Source: an uncultured Micavibrio sp. (GTDB lineage Bacteria; Pseudomonadota; Alphaproteobacteria; Micavibrionales; UBA1664). Taken from it: a stretch of DNA of 53,942 bases. This document shows, in pieces, positions 46,672 through 52,704 of the stretch. The translations under genes and the position numbers were made by a program. Under the pieces are notes generated by a model that was not told where the DNA came from, searched no databases, and worked only from the letters and a program-made list of their open reading frames with translations. The stretch is from NCBI GenBank assembly GCA_964350795.1, contig CAYGLI010000005.1, positions 1 to 53,942 of the forward strand. The letters are read 5' to 3'. The first letter of the stretch is position 1, and each line of letters begins with the position of its first letter.

Positions 46672-47547
46672 TTAAGGCGTGCTTAGTGTTACAGGTTTAG
46701 TAGGCCAAGCCCACTGACCTGGGTATTCCTTTACCCAGCTTTGTAGAAGAGATGAGACATCTTTTCCAATATCACTTAGCTCACGCTCTGATGTTGCTAT
46801 TGGAGGGCATACCTCAACAACAAATTCATTTCCTTGTCGAATACTACGGAGAGGAACCAGTGGGCAATTATATTGTTTTGCCAGTTTAATAAAGGTGGAA
46901 GATAATTTTGATTTTTGACCAAGAAAGTTAATGTCGATGCCACTCCTATACGTTTGGTCAATAACAAAGGCAAGACTTTGTCCATTTTTTAATTTTGTAA
47001 CAGCGTTTTTCAGCCCGCGCAAATTGTTAGGGATTGGTTCTATGCGACCATCTGATGAAGAGCGATAGGAATAGAGTAACTTATTTAATTGGGGATTTCT
47101 GATTGGTTGATAAATTGGATGAACAGCTAGGTTGAAATGGTGTAAAACTGAATGAGTTAGTATTTCCCAATTGCCGAAATGTCCTGAAAAAAATATAGCG
47201 GGCTGTTGTCTTTGCTGTAAGTCCAAAAGATGGCTTTCTCCTTTGAAGGTTGTTCTAATTCTAGAGAATTCTCTTTGGTGTGAGAGCTCGCCAATTATAC
47301 TTCCTATATTATTCATGCTATCTTTCGCAATTTGCTGGGCATCATTTTCAGATACCAATAGCATGCGTTGTATATTATGGATACGCCCAGAATTTTTCGC
47401 GGATGACGACAGTAAGGCGCTCATAAATTTTGCAGAAATAGAGGATGAACGGTCTGGTGATAAAAGACGGCATAATGCTAGGAAGGATTTCATAGCGATA
47501 AACTCTGTGGAGTGTTTGTGATTCATCTTACGCAAAATATACAACAT
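46672..47547 (-). CDS. Second lipid A acyltransferase (LpxL/HtrB family), divergent paralog
   Basis: GHFGNWE, YQPIRNP, VIDQ, PGQWAW. Confidence 0.85.
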   Translation of the reverse strand: MLYILRKMNHKHSTEFIAMKSFLALCRLLSPDRSSSISAKFMSALLSSSAKNSGRIHNIQRMLLVSENDAQQIAKDSMNNIGSIIGELSHQREFSRIRTTFKGESHLLDLQQRQQPAIFFSGHFGNWEILTHSVLHHFNLAVHPIYQPIRNPQLNKLLYSYRSSSDGRIEPIPNNLRGLKNAVTKLKNGQSLAFVIDQTYRSGIDINFLGQKSKLSSTFIKLAKQYNCPLVPLRSIRQGNEFVVEVCPPIATSERELSDIGKDVSSLLQSWVKEYPGQWAWPTKPVTLSTP

Positions 47548-47571: not shown

Positions 47572-48567
47572 TTATAGCCGATCTAAGAATTTATAAAGCG
47601 TTTTTTTGAAACGATCATCCAATTGAATTTTAATCTTAAGGTAGGAAATTTTGTTTTTCCAATGATCCGACAGGCGAATCCAATCTTTTTCCGTGGTGAT
47701 GATGGAGGCATTGGCTTGTTTTGCCTGTGCCTCAATTTTTTCAAGATCGGTGCGTTTGAAAACATAGTGATCGGGGAATGAATAATGCGCGTGAATTTTA
47801 TAGCCATTGGCCTCCAACGTATCATAAAATTTTTCAGGGCGGGCAATACCGGCAAAGGCGACAACCTTTTTACCTTCGTCTGGTCCGCCTTTATTCACCA
47901 ATTCGATTGACCCATCAAATTTTTTGAATTTGCCGAGTGCGGATAGGTTTGTTCCTTTATCACGATTGATAATAAGGGCGCCCCGTGCGCGTTTTAATGC
48001 CGATTGAACGGGTTCGCGCAATGGCCCTGAGGGGAAAACCAAACCATTACCAAATCCAAATCCGCCATCAATAACGATTAGGGATAAATCCTTTTTCAAT
48101 TGTGGATTTTGAAATCCATCATCCATGATAATCAGGTCATATCCTAATTGCTCGGCCAATATTGCGCCTTCATAACGGTCGCGTGATATGATTGTTGGGG
48201 CGTATCGTGCCTGCATCAAGGCTTCGTCCCCAACATTATAGGATGTGTGAATGGTTGTGTTGACCTGTATGGGGCCTTTTTCCGCGCCACCATACCCACG
48301 CATTAAAAAACAGGGTGTTTCAAATTTTCCGTGGTCTTTCACCAAATCCAAAATGGCGCGCGCCGTTGGGGTTTTCCCCGCACCACCAATGGTTATATTC
48401 CCAATACAAATCACGGGAAGAGGTGATTTTTTTTGCGATGTTATGGCGTGACGCAATTGTCCACCCCATTCATATAATTTAGATATGGGCCATAAAGCCT
48501 TGGATTTTAAGGGCGATCCATGATCGTCATTGGAATACCAAAATGATGGAATTTGAAGTTTGGCCAT
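47572..48567 (-). CDS. lpxK: Tetraacyldisaccharide 4'-kinase
   Basis: IGNITIGGAGKTP, RGYG, GDE, MDDGFQ, GPLRE, TTEKD. Confidence 0.96.
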   Translation of the reverse strand: MAKLQIPSFWYSNDDHGSPLKSKALWPISKLYEWGGQLRHAITSQKKSPLPVICIGNITIGGAGKTPTARAILDLVKDHGKFETPCFLMRGYGGAEKGPIQVNTTIHTSYNVGDEALMQARYAPTIISRDRYEGAILAEQLGYDLIIMDDGFQNPQLKKDLSLIVIDGGFGFGNGLVFPSGPLREPVQSALKRARGALIINRDKGTNLSALGKFKKFDGSIELVNKGGPDEGKKVVAFAGIARPEKFYDTLEANGYKIHAHYSFPDHYVFKRTDLEKIEAQAKQANASIITTEKDWIRLSDHWKNKISYLKIKIQLDDRFKKTLYKFLDRL

Positions 48568-48576
48568 ACAGGTAAG

Positions 48577-49863
48577 TTAAACTATTCCTGCCTTTTGACA
48601 AGTTGGTTTGATGGCCTCAATAATACTTTCCATGCCATCATTATATTTATTGATGGCGTAGGTTTGAGCATTATTTGAAAGCTCTAATTTTAAATTATAA
48701 TCATTCAATAATATTTTGAATTTATTATATAATTCATCGTTATTATTAACAATTAAGCAGGCGTTTTGTTTGGGCATTTCGCTGGCCTGAATTGAAAAAT
48801 TATGCAAGTCATCGCCACTGACGATTGCACATTGATGCCAGGCTGGTTCTAATAAATTATGCCCCCCACCTGGTTTCGTGCCCATGGAATTACCCACAAA
48901 TACGATAGGGCATAGATGATAAAACAACCCCAATTCGCCAATCGTATCGGCAACATAAATATCCGTATCCATGCGGCGGGACATTTTGAGAGATCGTCTT
49001 GCGATGTTTAACCCACTTTTGCTTAATTCATTGGCGATGCTTTCTCCGCGTTTGGGGTGTCGGGGGACGATAATTGATAATAAATTGGGGAAGTCGGTTT
49101 TGAGACGTTGATGAATTTCGAGCGCGATTCCTTCCTCGGGGTCATGTGTGCTGGCGAATAGCAAGCATGGTCGGGATTCAATAACAGCGCGAATATCATC
49201 GGCGGCGTGAATATCGAATGGTAGGGCAGGGGATAAATCTTTCAGGTTGCCTCTGGTTTCAACGGTCTCAATCCCAAGTGATTTTAAATTATCCGCATCA
49301 CGATGTGTTTGTGCTAAAATTGTATCAAAACAGGACAGCATATTTTGAAACCACAATCGTGCAATGGCCCATCGCTTAACGCTTTTATCCGATAGGCGCG
49401 CGTTCAAAAGCATGGATGGAATATTTTTATCCTTTATCGCCTTTAAATGATTTGGCCACAGCTCGGATTCAATCCAAATCACCATATCGGGATGCCAATG
49501 ATCGTGAAATTTTTCAATCCATTTGGGATGGTCATAGGGTATAAATTGATGCGTGACGTGGTCTGGCACGGTTCGTTTTTGGATCAATTGCGCCGATGTG
49601 ACCGTCATTGTTGTGATTAAAATATGCGGTGGATGATCCAGATTTTGAAAATAATCAATCAGGGGTAGGGCGGATAAGGCCTCTCCATTGCTTGCCGCGT
49701 GAATCCAGATGAGATTTCCATCAGGGCGTTTGATTTTTGATATCCCATATCGCTCGCTTAATCGTGATTTTATCTCTTTACCTTTTTGTACGCGGATAGA
49801 CCCTAACCCTTTTAATAATGGCCAAGACAGTGAAGTTAGGGATGAATAGAGACTTGAGAGCAA
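48577..49863 (-). CDS. waaA: Kdo transferase
   Basis: WIHAASNGE, ESELWPN, NARLS, VPRHP.RG, DTIGEL, GGHNLLEP. Confidence 0.96.
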   Translation of the reverse strand: MLSSLYSSLTSLSWPLLKGLGSIRVQKGKEIKSRLSERYGISKIKRPDGNLIWIHAASNGEALSALPLIDYFQNLDHPPHILITTMTVTSAQLIQKRTVPDHVTHQFIPYDHPKWIEKFHDHWHPDMVIWIESELWPNHLKAIKDKNIPSMLLNARLSDKSVKRWAIARLWFQNMLSCFDTILAQTHRDADNLKSLGIETVETRGNLKDLSPALPFDIHAADDIRAVIESRPCLLFASTHDPEEGIALEIHQRLKTDFPNLLSIIVPRHPKRGESIANELSKSGLNIARRSLKMSRRMDTDIYVADTIGELGLFYHLCPIVFVGNSMGTKPGGGHNLLEPAWHQCAIVSGDDLHNFSIQASEMPKQNACLIVNNNDELYNKFKILLNDYNLKLELSNNAQTYAINKYNDGMESIIEAIKPTCQKAGIV

Positions 49864-49906: not shown

Positions 49907-50104
49907 ATGAAACGTGTGTTTAGCTCAAAACAGAAACGAAAACAAGCCGAGGATGCCATTATCCGCGATATCGCAAAGATTCAAAAAACGTTGGAGGCGC
50001 ATCGTGAAAACAAGGACGAAGATGTTGATAAAAAACAAGTCATGTCCGTTTTAACGCGATTTATTCAGTTAAAGAAAAATACGAAATTATCAGTTAAAGA
50101 GTAG
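49907..50104 (+). CDS. Small hypothetical protein
   Basis: 65-aa charged helical ORF; TATAAT immediately upstream. Confidence 0.45.
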   Translation: MKRVFSSKQKRKQAEDAIIRDIAKIQKTLEAHRENKDEDVDKKQVMSVLTRFIQLKKNTKLSVKE

Positions 50105-50828
50105 TTCCAACAGAATTAACCGTATTATCAATGGCATCAACAGAATCAGATAATGGTTTGGTTAAGCCGTCTGCCATACTTTCAAAGGAGCTATTAACGT
50201 CGGCCGCATATGTCCCTAATTTACTTTTTACGCTTTGACAGGCCATATCAATCATACGTTGTGGCGCACTTGCGATTGCACCTGTGAGGGCATCAATTTG
50301 CCCGCCGATAAGGTCACTTATGGATGGTATATTGACGACAGGAAGACAATTAGGCATGTCCCATATCATTTCTTTTGTGGGGCAATCGATTGTTGGAACG
50401 GACAATCCGCCCCCTAAACCAGTGCTCCCTATGGCAGAGTGAAAAGATTTAGACACATTGGTGAATTGTTGATTGACCAAAGATGCGGCAGAACCAGCCA
50501 AATTACCTGTAAAAAATTGGCTCATTGTATCTTTTAATGGTTGTTGCACAACAGATGCAATGGATGTGTTAGGCTTTGTTTCATTTGAAAAGATCTTCAT
50601 GGGGGCTTTCCAAACCTCTGTCTGTTGATCAAGACATGTGCCCTGTTCAATTGGTGTTTGTGGCACTATTATCGCCTTCGCCGCCTCAATCTCTTGTTGT
50701 TGAAGGGCGTTTTTACGATTGTTTGACTGTTCATGAACGGCCTCCTCGCACCCAATAATGACGGCGTAGGATGGTTGAGACAAAACCATTATGATGGTGA
50801 AGAATGTTACAAAGATTGGTTTTGTCAT
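50094..50828 (-). CDS. Secreted Cys-containing protein; stand-alone paralog of the C-terminal domain of 50843-52168
   Basis: Signal peptide (..QPSYA), AAGGA RBS, homologous over its whole mature length to the upstream gene. Confidence 0.8.
   Translation of the reverse strand: MTKPIFVTFFTIIMVLSQPSYAVIIGCEEAVHEQSNNRKNALQQQEIEAAKAIIVPQTPIEQGTCLDQQTEVWKAPMKIFSNETKPNTSIASVVQQPLKDTMSQFFTGNLAGSAASLVNQQFTNVSKSFHSAIGSTGLGGGLSVPTIDCPTKEMIWDMPNCLPVVNIPSISDLIGGQIDALTGAIASAPQRMIDMACQSVKSKLGTYAADVNSSFESMADGLTKPLSDSVDAIDNTVNSVGTTL
50256..50699. repeat. Direct repeat copy 1 (444 bp)
   Basis: Matches 50987-51430 (offset 731); by eye only two differences (50283, 50294). Confidence 0.92.
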
Positions 50829-50842
50829 ATCGTTCTTTCCTT

Positions 50843-52168
50843 TTAATTCGTCGCGTTTGTTACGCTGGTGGCGGCGTCTGATAATGGTTGTGTTGCCTTT
50901 TTCGCGGCATTTTCAAAAACGTCAGTCGCGTCATTGATCTGTGCGCCTAATTTACTCTTAATACCCTGACAGGCCTTATCAAATAGACGTTGTGGCGCAC
51001 TTGCGATTGCACCAGTGAGGGCATTAATTTGCCCGCCGATAAGGTCACTTATGGATGGTATATTGACGACAGGAAGACAATTAGGCATGTCCCATATCAT
51101 TTCTTTTGTGGGGCAATCGATTGTTGGAACGGACAATCCGCCCCCTAAACCAGTGCTCCCTATGGCAGAGTGAAAAGATTTAGACACATTGGTGAATTGT
51201 TGATTGACCAAAGATGCGGCAGAACCAGCCAAATTACCTGTAAAAAATTGGCTCATTGTATCTTTTAATGGTTGTTGCACAACAGATGCAATGGATGTGT
51301 TAGGCTTTGTTTCATTTGAAAAGATCTTCATGGGGGCTTTCCAAACCTCTGTCTGTTGATCAAGACATGTGCCCTGTTCAATTGGTGTTTGTGGCACTAT
51401 TATCGCCTTCGCCGCCTCAATCTCTTGTTGACGCAGGGCATCGACCCTTGCTTTTGAAACATCCAATATAGCGGGGTCACAACCGATTAGGTTGTGCAGT
51501 CCATCAGCCTGCGCTTGTGCAAATACTCCCGCGGCATTGGGGACACCGCCACCACACGTGATTCCAGCCGGATCACCCATGATACCGTAACCTTGGAATT
51601 TTCCTGCATACGCCAATGCGGAGGTTCCTAATTGATCGCTAGAACCAGAGCTTGATGTTCGGATCATTCTGCGCGCTCCACCACATCCCGAAAGGTGGGC
51701 GGCGCCGACCAAGCCAGACATTGTTATTTGCACGCCGTTGATCGTTGTTCCAATTGCGTCTGTAGCCGGTGGATATGTTTTTCCACTTTTGGTTGTGTAA
51801 GGCTTACTTAAACAACTCGCATTGTTTGCAACAAATGTCTGTATTGTTTGTTCTTGCATTGCGGGGCTTTTAGAAAACGCGACAGGATCAATGCCCATAC
51901 CAACAAGTGTTTTTGGCATGAATTGATATTTCCCAATCGGTTTATCGCCATAGTGCATACTTTTAGGGTCGCTGATAGTTGGCCCCATACAATCATATTG
52001 ATTTGTTCCGCAACCGCCGCTTTCTGATTGGGCAAGAGCATCGTAAAAAGCGCCCGAGCTACAGGCTGCATTTCCTGCTATTGCCAAATCAGCGTCGGCA
52101 AGGGCATTACCCAGACCAAAACTGAATATGTATAAAGCAGCAATGATATAAATTTTATTTTTTATCAT
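50843..52168 (-). CDS. Secreted protein: lysozyme-like domain plus Cys-containing C-terminal domain
   Basis: Signal peptide; SESGG, GKYQF, F.KSPAMQE, INGVQITMSGLVGAAHL.G.GG, DQLGTS..Y..KF.GY; start set at MIKNK (ATGA overlap). Confidence 0.75.
   Translation of the reverse strand: MIKNKIYIIAALYIFSFGLGNALADADLAIAGNAACSSGAFYDALAQSESGGCGTNQYDCMGPTISDPKSMHYGDKPIGKYQFMPKTLVGMGIDPVAFSKSPAMQEQTIQTFVANNASCLSKPYTTKSGKTYPPATDAIGTTINGVQITMSGLVGAAHLSGCGGARRMIRTSSSGSSDQLGTSALAYAGKFQGYGIMGDPAGITCGGGVPNAAGVFAQAQADGLHNLIGCDPAILDVSKARVDALRQQEIEAAKAIIVPQTPIEQGTCLDQQTEVWKAPMKIFSNETKPNTSIASVVQQPLKDTMSQFFTGNLAGSAASLVNQQFTNVSKSFHSAIGSTGLGGGLSVPTIDCPTKEMIWDMPNCLPVVNIPSISDLIGGQINALTGAIASAPQRLFDKACQGIKSKLGAQINDATDVFENAAKKATQPLSDAATSVTNATN
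50987..51430. repeat. Direct repeat copy 2 (444 bp)
   Basis: See 50256-50699. Confidence 0.92.
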
Positions 52169-52704
52169 CTTTTTGCCTCTGTGTATTTTAAGCCATCCCA
52201 AAGCCAAATTTTCACTGATTTTTTGGCTTGTTCAATTGATGTTGAGATAATATTTGCAGAACTGTTTTTGGATGAATTTACATCAAAATAAACGGCATGA
52301 GCCTGTAAACTTAAAACTAAACTCCATTTGTTTCCACCGGATGATGCATAGATATAATATGGACAACCATAACTTGTGCAATAATACGATGTATTTTGAG
52401 CCGTGACAGCAAGAAATCGTTTTGGGTTTCTTGGGTCTAATCTTAGGTAAGATGCGTAAAAATCACCTTCTTCAAAACCGTCTTCTACTTCAAAAAATGC
52501 TGGATCTAATCTTTCTACTATTCTTAATGCCTCAGGATCGCTTGTTTGTTCATTCAAAACAATTTCCACCAATTTTGGTTTTGAATCTTGTGCATATGAT
52601 GGAGACACCATCAATGAGGCCATCAAAAAAACAGCCATAAACAGGATATTTAGAAATAAAATATGATTTGGAATGCGTGTAATCACGAAAAACTCTCTTG
52701 TCAT
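52165..52704 (-). CDS. Exported beta-rich protein with a CxxxGC motif (possible lysozyme inhibitor)
   Basis: Signal peptide (..SPSYA), YYCTSYGCPYYIY, terminal WLWDGLKY; stop overlaps next start. Confidence 0.65.
   Translation of the reverse strand: MTREFFVITRIPNHILFLNILFMAVFLMASLMVSPSYAQDSKPKLVEIVLNEQTSDPEALRIVERLDPAFFEVEDGFEEGDFYASYLRLDPRNPKRFLAVTAQNTSYYCTSYGCPYYIYASSGGNKWSLVLSLQAHAVYFDVNSSKNSSANIISTSIEQAKKSVKIWLWDGLKYTEAKR

Follow-up and report, generated by a model that had tools for sequence, protein, structure and literature searches.

Three adjacent genes in a 53,942-nucleotide (nt) stretch of DNA from an uncultured Micavibrio sp. (assembly GCA_964350795.1, contig CAYGLI010000005.1, which is contig C5 of the organism's own genome, G000; the whole stretch is referred to as the window) appear to encode an exported cell wall-degrading enzyme, a protein that may block it, and a free copy of the enzyme's C-terminal domain. 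These co-oriented genes, g1, g2, and g3, occupy positions 50094 to 52704 on the minus strand, and the frames of all three are intact in the list of open reading frames (ORFs). Our overall reading is that g2 is a Sec-exported peptidoglycan hydrolase that is inactivated by a cognate periplasmic inhibitor, g1, and rides on a domain linked to secretion systems of type IVB (Dot/Icm, IncI); taken as a whole, we consider this reading about evenly poised between right and wrong.

The sequence-only reading of this DNA had described the three genes as tightly coupled and their products as secreted; the coupling holds up, and the products appear to carry signal peptides. g1 (52165..52704, minus strand) encodes a 179-aa, apparently exported, beta-rich protein that is predicted to plug or inhibit the glycosidase domain of g2. 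g2 (50843..52168, minus strand) encodes a 441-aa fusion, counted from its ATG, of a signal peptide, a predicted lysozyme-fold domain, a linker, and a cysteine-containing C-terminal domain (the C-domain, or tail); the ORF list begins this gene at TTG 52207 instead. g3 (50094..50828, minus strand) encodes the C-domain as a free-standing protein of 244 aa that has a signal peptide of its own. The start of g2 overlaps the stop of g1 in an ATGA at 52165 to 52168, and the 14-nt spacer between g2 and g3 (50829..50842, minus strand) contains AAGGAA, a ribosome-binding-like site. Judged by eye, the signal peptides of all three proteins have an h-region followed by SYA/ALA cleavage-like sites.

None of the three proteins matched a Pfam, NCBIfam, or PHROGs family above cut-off. 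A PDB sequence search with g2 returned 0 matches, and a related-locus search with g2 as the query gave 0 confirmed matches. Among 1.84 billion representative sequences, g2 had 220 relatives at E <= 1e-3 and 28 at E <= 1e-10, comprising full-length fusions, free C-domains, and many proteins of ~200 aa that matched residues ~78 to 196 only. The identity of the enzyme head was approached through an AlphaFold 2 (AF2) model built on a 27-row alignment (A1), in which residues ~35 to 200 had a predicted local distance difference test (pLDDT) score above 90. When this model was compared with 48,161 chains by VIA-align, the top match was leech destabilase (Z 8.9, root mean square deviation 3.6, 117 aligned), and further rows included Cj0843c (Z 8.8), MltC (8.7), Slt (8.5), MltE (8.3), the phi6 lysin (8.2), and phiKZ gp144 (8.0). 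Lysozymes, lytic transglycosylases, or phage lysins filled rows 1 to 10 and, in all, 13 of the first 14 rows (Z 8.9 to 6.3), the sole exception being a chitinase catalytic domain in row 11. A Foldseek search of the PDB with the same model gave no row at E <= 1e-3, and its top rows were from the same families as those found by VIA-align.

The enzyme domain (51554..52066, minus strand; residues ~35 to 205) contains two of the motifs that had been picked out from the letters alone, ESGG (E49 to G52) and GKYQF (79 to 83). Glu49, Gly79, and Gln82 are kept in 12/12 relatives carrying the enzyme domain, a count that leaves out two rows with M23 peptidase heads that MAFFT misaligned in these columns, and E49-S50 is the E-S motif expected of the catalytic Glu, where the first helix ends, in the lysozyme-like superfamily. 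Pfam SLT was passed by one of the 10 N-domain relatives scanned (P0033, 7.1e-6, 26 bits vs. a cut-off of 21.3), and two of the 10 matched Transglycosylas below cut-off. From the model and the conserved residues, we conclude that the g2 head is a lysozyme- or lytic-transglycosylase-fold glycosidase with Glu49 as the predicted catalytic acid, in agreement with the lysozyme fold first proposed for the middle protein.

The AF2 model of g1 (pLDDT 90) consists of one helix followed by eight strands. Foldseek gave no PDB row at E <= 1e-3 for this model, the weak rows including 4qtq, a "Xanthomonas type IV secretion system related protein." The best VIA-align matches were beta-propeller fragments (Z up to 6.5), and CarG (Z 5.8), Tsi1 (5.3), and PliI-Ah (5.0) were tied with such fragments; because all of these Z values lie under the tool's noise mark of 8, the fold alone decides nothing. 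A PDB sequence search with g1 returned only weak compositional matches to designed tetratricopeptide repeat proteins, and no sequence or profile match to the Ivy, PliC/I/G, Tsi, or X-Tfi families was found in Pfam, NCBIfam, or the PDB. The ESM Atlas yielded only "hypothetical protein" clusters for g3 and g1, and a search for homologous proteins led from g3 to itself only and from the g1 alignment to nine proteins, none with a name.

A model of the complex was more informative about the first gene, which the sequence-only reading had taken for a putative inhibitor. When g2 (residues 27 to 441) was modeled together with g1 (residues 40 to 179), the interaction prediction score from aligned errors (ipSAE) was 0.76, 0.75, and 0.74 in three runs, vs. 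0.00 for the best of three control complexes. This mark was reached by 58/80 solved complexes and 2/110 mismatched pairs, counts that are only rough for custom alignments. The runs agreed in at least 82% of contacts, with partner pLDDT of at least 83, and, since the sequence of neither protein resembles one with a solved structure, the score is unlikely to derive from a memorized complex. The confident contacts of g2 are all within the glycosidase head, at residues 47 to 53 (with E49), 60 to 87 (with Gln82 to Met84), 119 to 132, and 158 to 186, and none lie in the tail. The center of the g1 interface is formed by residues 103 to 115, where the loop CTSYGC is bounded by C109 and C114 (C109-x4-C114); this C-x4-C loop occurs in 5/5 small proteins preceding glycosidase fusions and in 0/2 of those preceding M23 fusions. 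The modeled complex supports the earlier proposal, with g1 covering the active-site cleft of g2 as a putative inhibitor. We had also considered g1 as a partner of the C-domain, given that its family accompanies non-hydrolase paralogs, and dropped this candidate for g1 itself because the model places it wholly on the glycosidase domain.

The C-domain of g2 (50846..51490, minus strand; residues 227 to 441) has five cysteines (C230, C268, C352, C364, and C400), the number counted originally, and these are invariant in the alignment; it also carries the motif NIPSISDLI and matches no Pfam or NCBIfam family. Its occurrence on other enzymes, which had been suggested as something to look for, was borne out: Peptidase_M23 (PF01551) lies N-terminal to the same C-domain in 4/27 members of alignment A1 (best E 2.2e-18) and, by Pfam, in none of the three proteins of the window. 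The second metal-binding motif of M23 peptidases is normally H-x-H. In the M23-tail fusions P0014, P0019, P0024, and P0029 it is HLD, and these fusions may be variant or inactive peptidases.

As had also been noticed, the C-domain recurs alone as the third gene: residues 227 to 441 of g2 and 24 to 238 of g3 are 81% identical over 215 aa without gaps (BLASTP E 3e-120), far above chance, and a search of the own genome found these two copies only. The DNA of the repeat has 98 mismatches in 645 aligned bases, every one of them outside a tract of 405 consecutive identical nt (51026..51430 in g2 and its partner 50295..50699 in g3, both minus strand) with strongly diverged flanking ends. In a run of public reads (X1), a contig of exactly 50295 to 50699 had a depth of 23.1 vs. 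10.7 to 14.2 in the flanking pieces, and we take the two copies to be real because this depth is ~2x that of the flanks. The identical tract is best read as the product of gene conversion. Tandem tails within one genome are 90 to 99.5% identical as DNA in 4/5 genomes, even under different heads, and tail orthologs between genomes are ~30 to 50% identical as protein. Such concerted evolution suggests that the homogenized tails must fit a common partner shared by all copies in one cell.

The same run contained a 71-nt contig at 51981 to 52051, within the g2 enzyme head, with a depth of 22.3, ~2x that of its flanks, and loose-ended contigs leave it on both sides. Because of the doubled depth and the loose-ended contigs, this segment is taken to be shared with another sequence in the sample, from a paralog or a related strain.

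Relatives of the tail outside the order to which the window belongs show a physical link to type IVB genes. There, the domain profile matched 5/398 genomes of the class (Alphaproteobacteria), all weakly and over the N-terminal half. All five, from five different families, encode DotI, vs. 28/398 overall (the 28 include an unpublished genome, G240, that is dispensable for the claim). Four of the five matches lie 0.4 to 7 kb from DotI genes, within clusters with DotH, DotG, DotO, DotA, and an IcmX/TraW-like gene. Four outside-order relatives had no match above cut-off in the family libraries, and the cluster-embedded proteins matched the family profile by hhalign at 96.9% (E 1.9e-10, 91 columns). 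The tail family is thus very probably associated with type IVB systems.

The own genome carries such a system. The dot/icm genes for which the sequence-only reading had suggested looking beyond the window are present on contigs C2, C7, C18, and C31, where R64 Tra/Trb queries matched homologs of DotL, DotM, DotO, DotG, DotH, DotI, DotB, and DotC. The Dot/Icm-type system is spread over at least four loci: DotG/H/I at G000:C2:33725-38231 (with DotI/IcmL, PF11393, at G000:C2:37515-38048, E 5.9e-57), DotL/M at G000:C7:1653-5927, DotO at G000:C18:20143-23154, and DotB/C at G000:C31:7800-9760. DotI was found in 197/201 genomes sampled from the order, often in 2 to 6 copies. For the type IVA system, VirB4 (PF03135) was not found in the own, 88%-complete genome and was present in 27/201 order genomes, with 0/14 in one family, f1. 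The VipB sheath of the type VI secretion system was not found in the own genome, which has five PilB/GspE-family ATPases and three secretins. According to a passage of the 2011 genome paper on M. aeruginosavorus, nothing pointed to a system of type III or IV, and a marine-genome survey of 2022 refers in one passage to "seven Micavibrionales" that have the Dot/Icm-like subtype.

Several further observations concern the secretion genes themselves. A 387-aa protein with a signal peptide, encoded at G000:C2:38414-39577 on the plus strand (L050:5414-6577), is divergent from dotI; a weak relative (E 3.4e-4) at L046:3604-5037 on the minus strand adjoins a TraL-like gene within a type IVB cluster that belongs to an alphaproteobacterium of unrelated descent. 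Both proteins are without a Pfam match, and the 387-aa protein is possibly another unrecognized type IVB component. At L047:9023-11939 (G420:C4), an alphaproteobacterial type IVB cluster has four DotI/IcmL paralogs in a row, followed by DotH and DotG. A short contig of the own genome with 49% guanine-plus-cytosine (GC) content (G000:C93:1-4670) encodes a VirB11-like ATPase, a Fic-domain protein, and a VirD4/TraG coupling protein and is probably a mobile-element fragment or a binning stray.

The tail had been likened at the outset to TraL, and the resemblance is upheld by a colinear motif match of moderate strength (hhalign 63 to 77%) that is reinforced by the relatives inside type IVB clusters. 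In the IncI1 plasmids (R64/ColIb-P9), TraL has a Sec signal and three conserved cysteines, at positions 25, 63, and 92, and the R64 traL gene (115 aa) lies directly upstream of traM/dotI; outside the order, relatives of the window domain are located beside dotI/traM just as traL is. A Cys-38-Cys spacing is common to C230/C268 of g2 and C25/C63 of TraL. Between these first two cysteines, a helix carries an A..A..Q.E pattern in the window domain, like the A..DAW.QRE of TraL, and then follow, in the same order as in TraL, the motif (M/L)P.(I/F)PS(I/L)xD(L/I) (PSLxDIL type) and the Cys of (A/Q)(V)C (C400 in g2; VC in TraL). In the window domain, the TraL-like halves are parted by a ~95-residue insert with two extra cysteines. 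The genus-level alignment (A2) matched 25 TraL homologs by hhalign at 77% (E 2e-5, 31 columns), and the embedded outside-order relatives matched TraL at 63%. When a TraL hidden Markov model (HMM) was run on 433 ORFs, two same-genus tails were matched at E 3.6e-8 and 8.3e-8, and the next four matches were also tails. In a comparison of a broader alignment (A3) with 11 R64 Tra proteins by hhalign, TraL scored 3.3% and the others, including TraW and TraV, at most 0.4%. A tblastn search of 72,556 plasmids with g3 and a Micavibrionaceae paralog B found no match. We lean toward placing the tail in a TraL-like superfamily. Unlike TraL, the window domain measures ~215 aa, with its insert and a long Ser/Ala/Thr-rich tail, and is duplicated, fused to a hydrolase, and located beside waaA rather than dotI. 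The TraL homolog of pCTX-M3 has 170 aa according to a passage of PMC6112013, a paper that, in the portion concerned, assigns no function to TraL.

Beyond the window, the C-domain profile matched 163/201 genomes of the order and 140/165 of the high-quality ones. By family, it was detected in 8/14 genomes of f1, 104/118 of f5, 9/9 of f7, 40/42 of f8, and 1/3 of f6, and in 0/10 of f3, 0/3 of f4, and 0/1 of f2. Five same-genus loci vary in their makeup, with a small protein followed by a glycosidase-tail fusion, a second small protein followed by an M23-tail fusion, and free tails, free copies also being present at L003 and L006. At L005 and L007, a single genome has both a glycosidase and an endopeptidase head, and waaA is directly downstream in 3/5 of these loci (L006, L007, and L008). 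In other families, the layout consists of a small protein (150 to 210 aa), a paralog A (330 to 520 aa) with no recognizable enzyme, and a paralog B (~290 to 320 aa), and it is directly upstream of waaA also in L013 and L016. Eight module proteins of this Micavibrionaceae type found nothing above cut-off in the family libraries. In the window, the downstream neighbor that is conserved across the order is waaA itself (48577..49863, minus strand), which encodes a 3-deoxy-D-manno-octulosonic acid (Kdo) transferase (Pfam Glycos_transf_N, 2.3e-55). The trio is the local form of this conserved module of small protein, paralog A, and paralog B beside waaA, g3 being paralog B.

The small proteins upstream are all linked by jackhmmer from g1, and the link between the M23-associated and the Micavibrionaceae small proteins is solid (hhalign 96.9%). 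An HMM of the g1 clade found exactly two extra ORFs among the 433, both positional equivalents, at a weak E of 2 to 3e-4. The small-protein family travels with the tail family, and its members seem to adapt to the head of the next gene. Since the family also accompanies hydrolase-free paralogs, "lysozyme immunity protein" would describe a local role of g1 and not the general one of the family. In family f8, some genomes have three tandem tail-profile genes (frames of 236 to 415 aa) instead of two, at G056:C1:196571-198485, G110:C4:227768-229695, G114:C5:272177-274587, and G090:C2:2029-3969.

Based on these occurrence patterns and models, we propose the following mechanism. The tail family would comprise periplasmic proteins of type IVB systems, of which IncI1 TraL looks like a minimal member, and in this genus, paralog A would have gained wall-degrading heads, either glycosidase or M23, each placed after a small protein of the same family. 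g2 would then be a Sec-exported peptidoglycan glycosidase fused to a disulfide-containing domain of ~215 aa, and g3 a cargo-less paralog of that domain. g1, translated just before g2 and also exported, would meet it in the periplasm, where its C-x4-C loop over the glycosidase cleft would silence g2 in the producer's own periplasm. The tail would most likely dock g2, perhaps with g3, to the type IVB machine of the order's core genome or to some partner common to every copy in a genome, plausibly a periplasmic part of that machine. Release of g2 could take place on the surface of the cell or into another cell that it touches, and the enzyme would be active at the outer membrane or past it, where there is no g1.

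Swappable heads with cognate blockers on homogenized tails fit the logic of effectors and immunity proteins better than that of a machine-assembly enzyme. In a further step that we consider rather improbable, the core Dot/Icm-type machine of Micavibrio-like bacteria would be used against other bacteria, with plugged hydrolases exported by Sec, docked by their TraL-like tails, and pushed across the outer membrane into the wall of the prey. If this is true, the substrates would enter the machine from the periplasm, as pertussis toxin does, and the machine would be the first bacteria-directed type IVB system with a recognizable, swappable delivery domain. The X-Tfe effectors of Xanthomonas and Lysobacter provide a partial parallel: they have a wall-degrading head, a C-terminal delivery domain, and a neighboring gene for a periplasmic immunity protein (X-Tfi) with a partial propeller-like beta fold. 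X-Tfe effectors have no Sec signal and are recognized in the cytoplasm by VirD4 via the XVIPCD. Unlike X-Tfe/X-Tfi, the products of the trio appear to be Sec exported and to contain disulfides, the secretion system is of type IVB, and the immunity-like gene lies upstream.

A number of observations weigh against the proposed mechanism. Known type IV substrates are mostly cytoplasmic, and the Sec signals on the trio do not fit this pattern. None of the 21 R64 Tra/Trb proteins matches contig C5; the module is not beside dot/icm genes in this order, and it lies far from every DotI copy, or on another contig, in 5/5 genomes (four closed and one in nine contigs). Families f3 and f4 have DotI and no detectable module, and because of this, a type IVB machine does not need the module. 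The similarity to TraL spans only ~31 to 40 aligned columns; the broader alignment A3 matched the TraL family by hhalign at only 7.6%, and the TraL HMM leaves g2 and g3 outside the top 15 of the 5259 ORFs of their own genome. The C-domain had an AF2 pLDDT of only 30 to 45, so no meaningful fold search could be made with it. The g1 clade is linked only weakly to the other small-protein groups (hhalign 11 to 28%, vs. 0.2 to 0.7% for reversed-sequence controls), and the small-protein family also precedes paralogs without a hydrolase. Finally, the fixed core-genome site of the module, in one orientation with waaA-lpxK, fits a housekeeping role in the envelope equally well.

Among the alternatives, the one that survives best, although on balance unlikely, is that g2 and the M23 fusions are "space-making" wall enzymes of the type IVB machine and have the cell's own wall as their target. 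The TraL-like domain would tether the enzyme and g1 would restrain it until assembly, in analogy to VirB1 and to the two-enzyme hydrolases of Gram-positive conjugation systems. VirB1, the lytic transglycosylase of type IVA systems, has a C-terminal part that is secreted. It resembles g2 in having a lysozyme-fold wall glycosidase, a Sec signal, and a C-terminal, nonenzymatic part that belongs to a type IV system (VirB1 is treated in a passage of PMC12857230). Unlike VirB1, to which no sequence relation was found, g2 occurs with a system of type IVB and has a predicted inhibitor upstream, its head is exchangeable with M23, and its tail has a free paralog. An assembly role is favored by a transposon screen that scored TraL of an IncI1 plasmid as "required for transfer" with a probability of 1.00 (PMC4288162, Table 2) and by R64 having no lytic transglycosylase, where the related IncM system has TrbN, according to part of PMC6112013. 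The position of the module in the core genome, its conservation across the order, and the presence of relatives of the domain inside type IVB operons are also in its favor, as are the glycosidase and endopeptidase heads found in one genome at L005 and L007. The hydrolases of Gram-positive conjugation systems reportedly combine both activities, to go by the title of a paper cited in PMC12857230, which we count for the same alternative. On the other side, toxin-immunity pairs typically have a cognate blocker encoded upstream, and, to our knowledge, it is not usual for a transglycosylase of machine assembly to be preceded by a gene for a dedicated, tight inhibitor. Moreover, the module lacks a hydrolase head in most families of the order, f3 and f4 have the machine without the module, and the module is unlinked to the dot/icm loci in this order, all of which argues against an enzyme dedicated to assembly.

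We consider it very unlikely that the small protein and paralogs A and B are a system that maintains the periplasm or outer membrane and is cotranscribed with waaA-lpxK-lpxL, with g2 as a regulated autolysin serving growth or division and the likeness to TraL as convergent or irrelevant. The gene order in the window does suit it, since g1, g2, g3, waaA, lpxK (47572-48567, minus strand; Pfam LpxK, 3.6e-82), and then a lipid A acyltransferase gene (46672-47547, minus strand; Pfam Lip_A_acyltrans, 1.5e-28) are all co-oriented, the module is directly upstream of waaA in L006, L007, L008, L013, and L016, and the GC content of the trio is like that of the rest of the contig. Inhibitors of the Ivy type, moreover, control a bacterium's own lytic transglycosylases, as part of PMC3660660 states. 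Like Ivy, PliI, PliG, and the type VI immunity protein Tsi1, g1 is a small, apparently exported, beta-rich protein that is placed, in its case by the model only, over a glycosidase cleft, and the disulfide-tied C-x4-C loop of g1 recalls the conserved CKPHDC motif of Ivy. Unlike these inhibitors, g1 belongs to a family that also accompanies non-hydrolase paralogs, and its fold scores stay below Z 8. Against a role in maintenance, all five outside-order relatives are in DotI-bearing genomes and four of them are inside type IVB clusters, the swaps of glycosidase and M23 heads on one tail and the concerted evolution of tails are atypical of housekeeping autolysins, and the module is absent from 38/201 genomes of the order.

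That the duplicated domain is an assembly artifact, or that the genes are decaying remnants, has next to no likelihood, even though the own genome is a bin in 112 contigs (88% complete, GC ~42%) and a perfect 405-nt repeat is of a kind that assemblers mishandle, given the three intact frames, the ~2x depth of the repeat contig in run X1, the same tandem layouts in other genomes of the genus, and the conserved catalytic and cysteine residues.

Returning to the reading of g2 as a plugged hydrolase on a type-IVB-associated tail, its ingredients are partly of kinds already known, namely, wall-degrading effectors with immunity proteins and transglycosylases tethered to secretion systems. After a search of open-access full text and the family libraries, the following appear to be new: a previously undescribed tail family that is tied to type IVB clusters and TraL, the duplication and homogenization of that tail, the presence of two kinds of wall hydrolase on one tail with an upstream small-protein family, and the setting of all this in an order where a Dot/Icm-like system is universal.

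Intracellular pathogens and IncI plasmids are the familiar carriers of type IVB systems. Here, an order related to the epibiotic predator Micavibrio carries one as part of its core genome, and the TraL-like domain in this order is a duplicated, homogenized tail bearing wall-degrading heads with cognate, putative blockers. Should the tail serve for docking or delivery, it would offer a means of recognizing substrates of these machines by sequence, a testable way for a predator that does not invade its prey to breach the prey's wall, and a first functional clue for TraL. Should g2 rather be a hydrolase for assembly of the machine, no enzyme of this sort would have been tied before to a type IVB system along with its own inhibitor.

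The upstream neighbors of the trio, a DUF3126 gene, an ArsC-family gene, and the end of a class II tRNA synthetase gene, are ordinary core genes. Promoter-like sites numbered 12 (9.6 +/- 3.7 in shuffles) and terminator-like sites numbered 2 (2.9 +/- 1.9 in shuffles), and these counts do not allow an operon boundary to be drawn. In the 230-nt gap before waaA lies a 65-aa ORF (window 49907-50104, plus strand) that overlaps the end of g3 by 11 nt; it has no family match and may not be a gene. In a run of reads from a second study with another habitat label (X3), a contig is ~94 to 95% like g1 and the g2 head (window 51678-52517), with 43 differing letters and 9 gaps over 840 nt, which indicates that a close relative of this organism occurs elsewhere.

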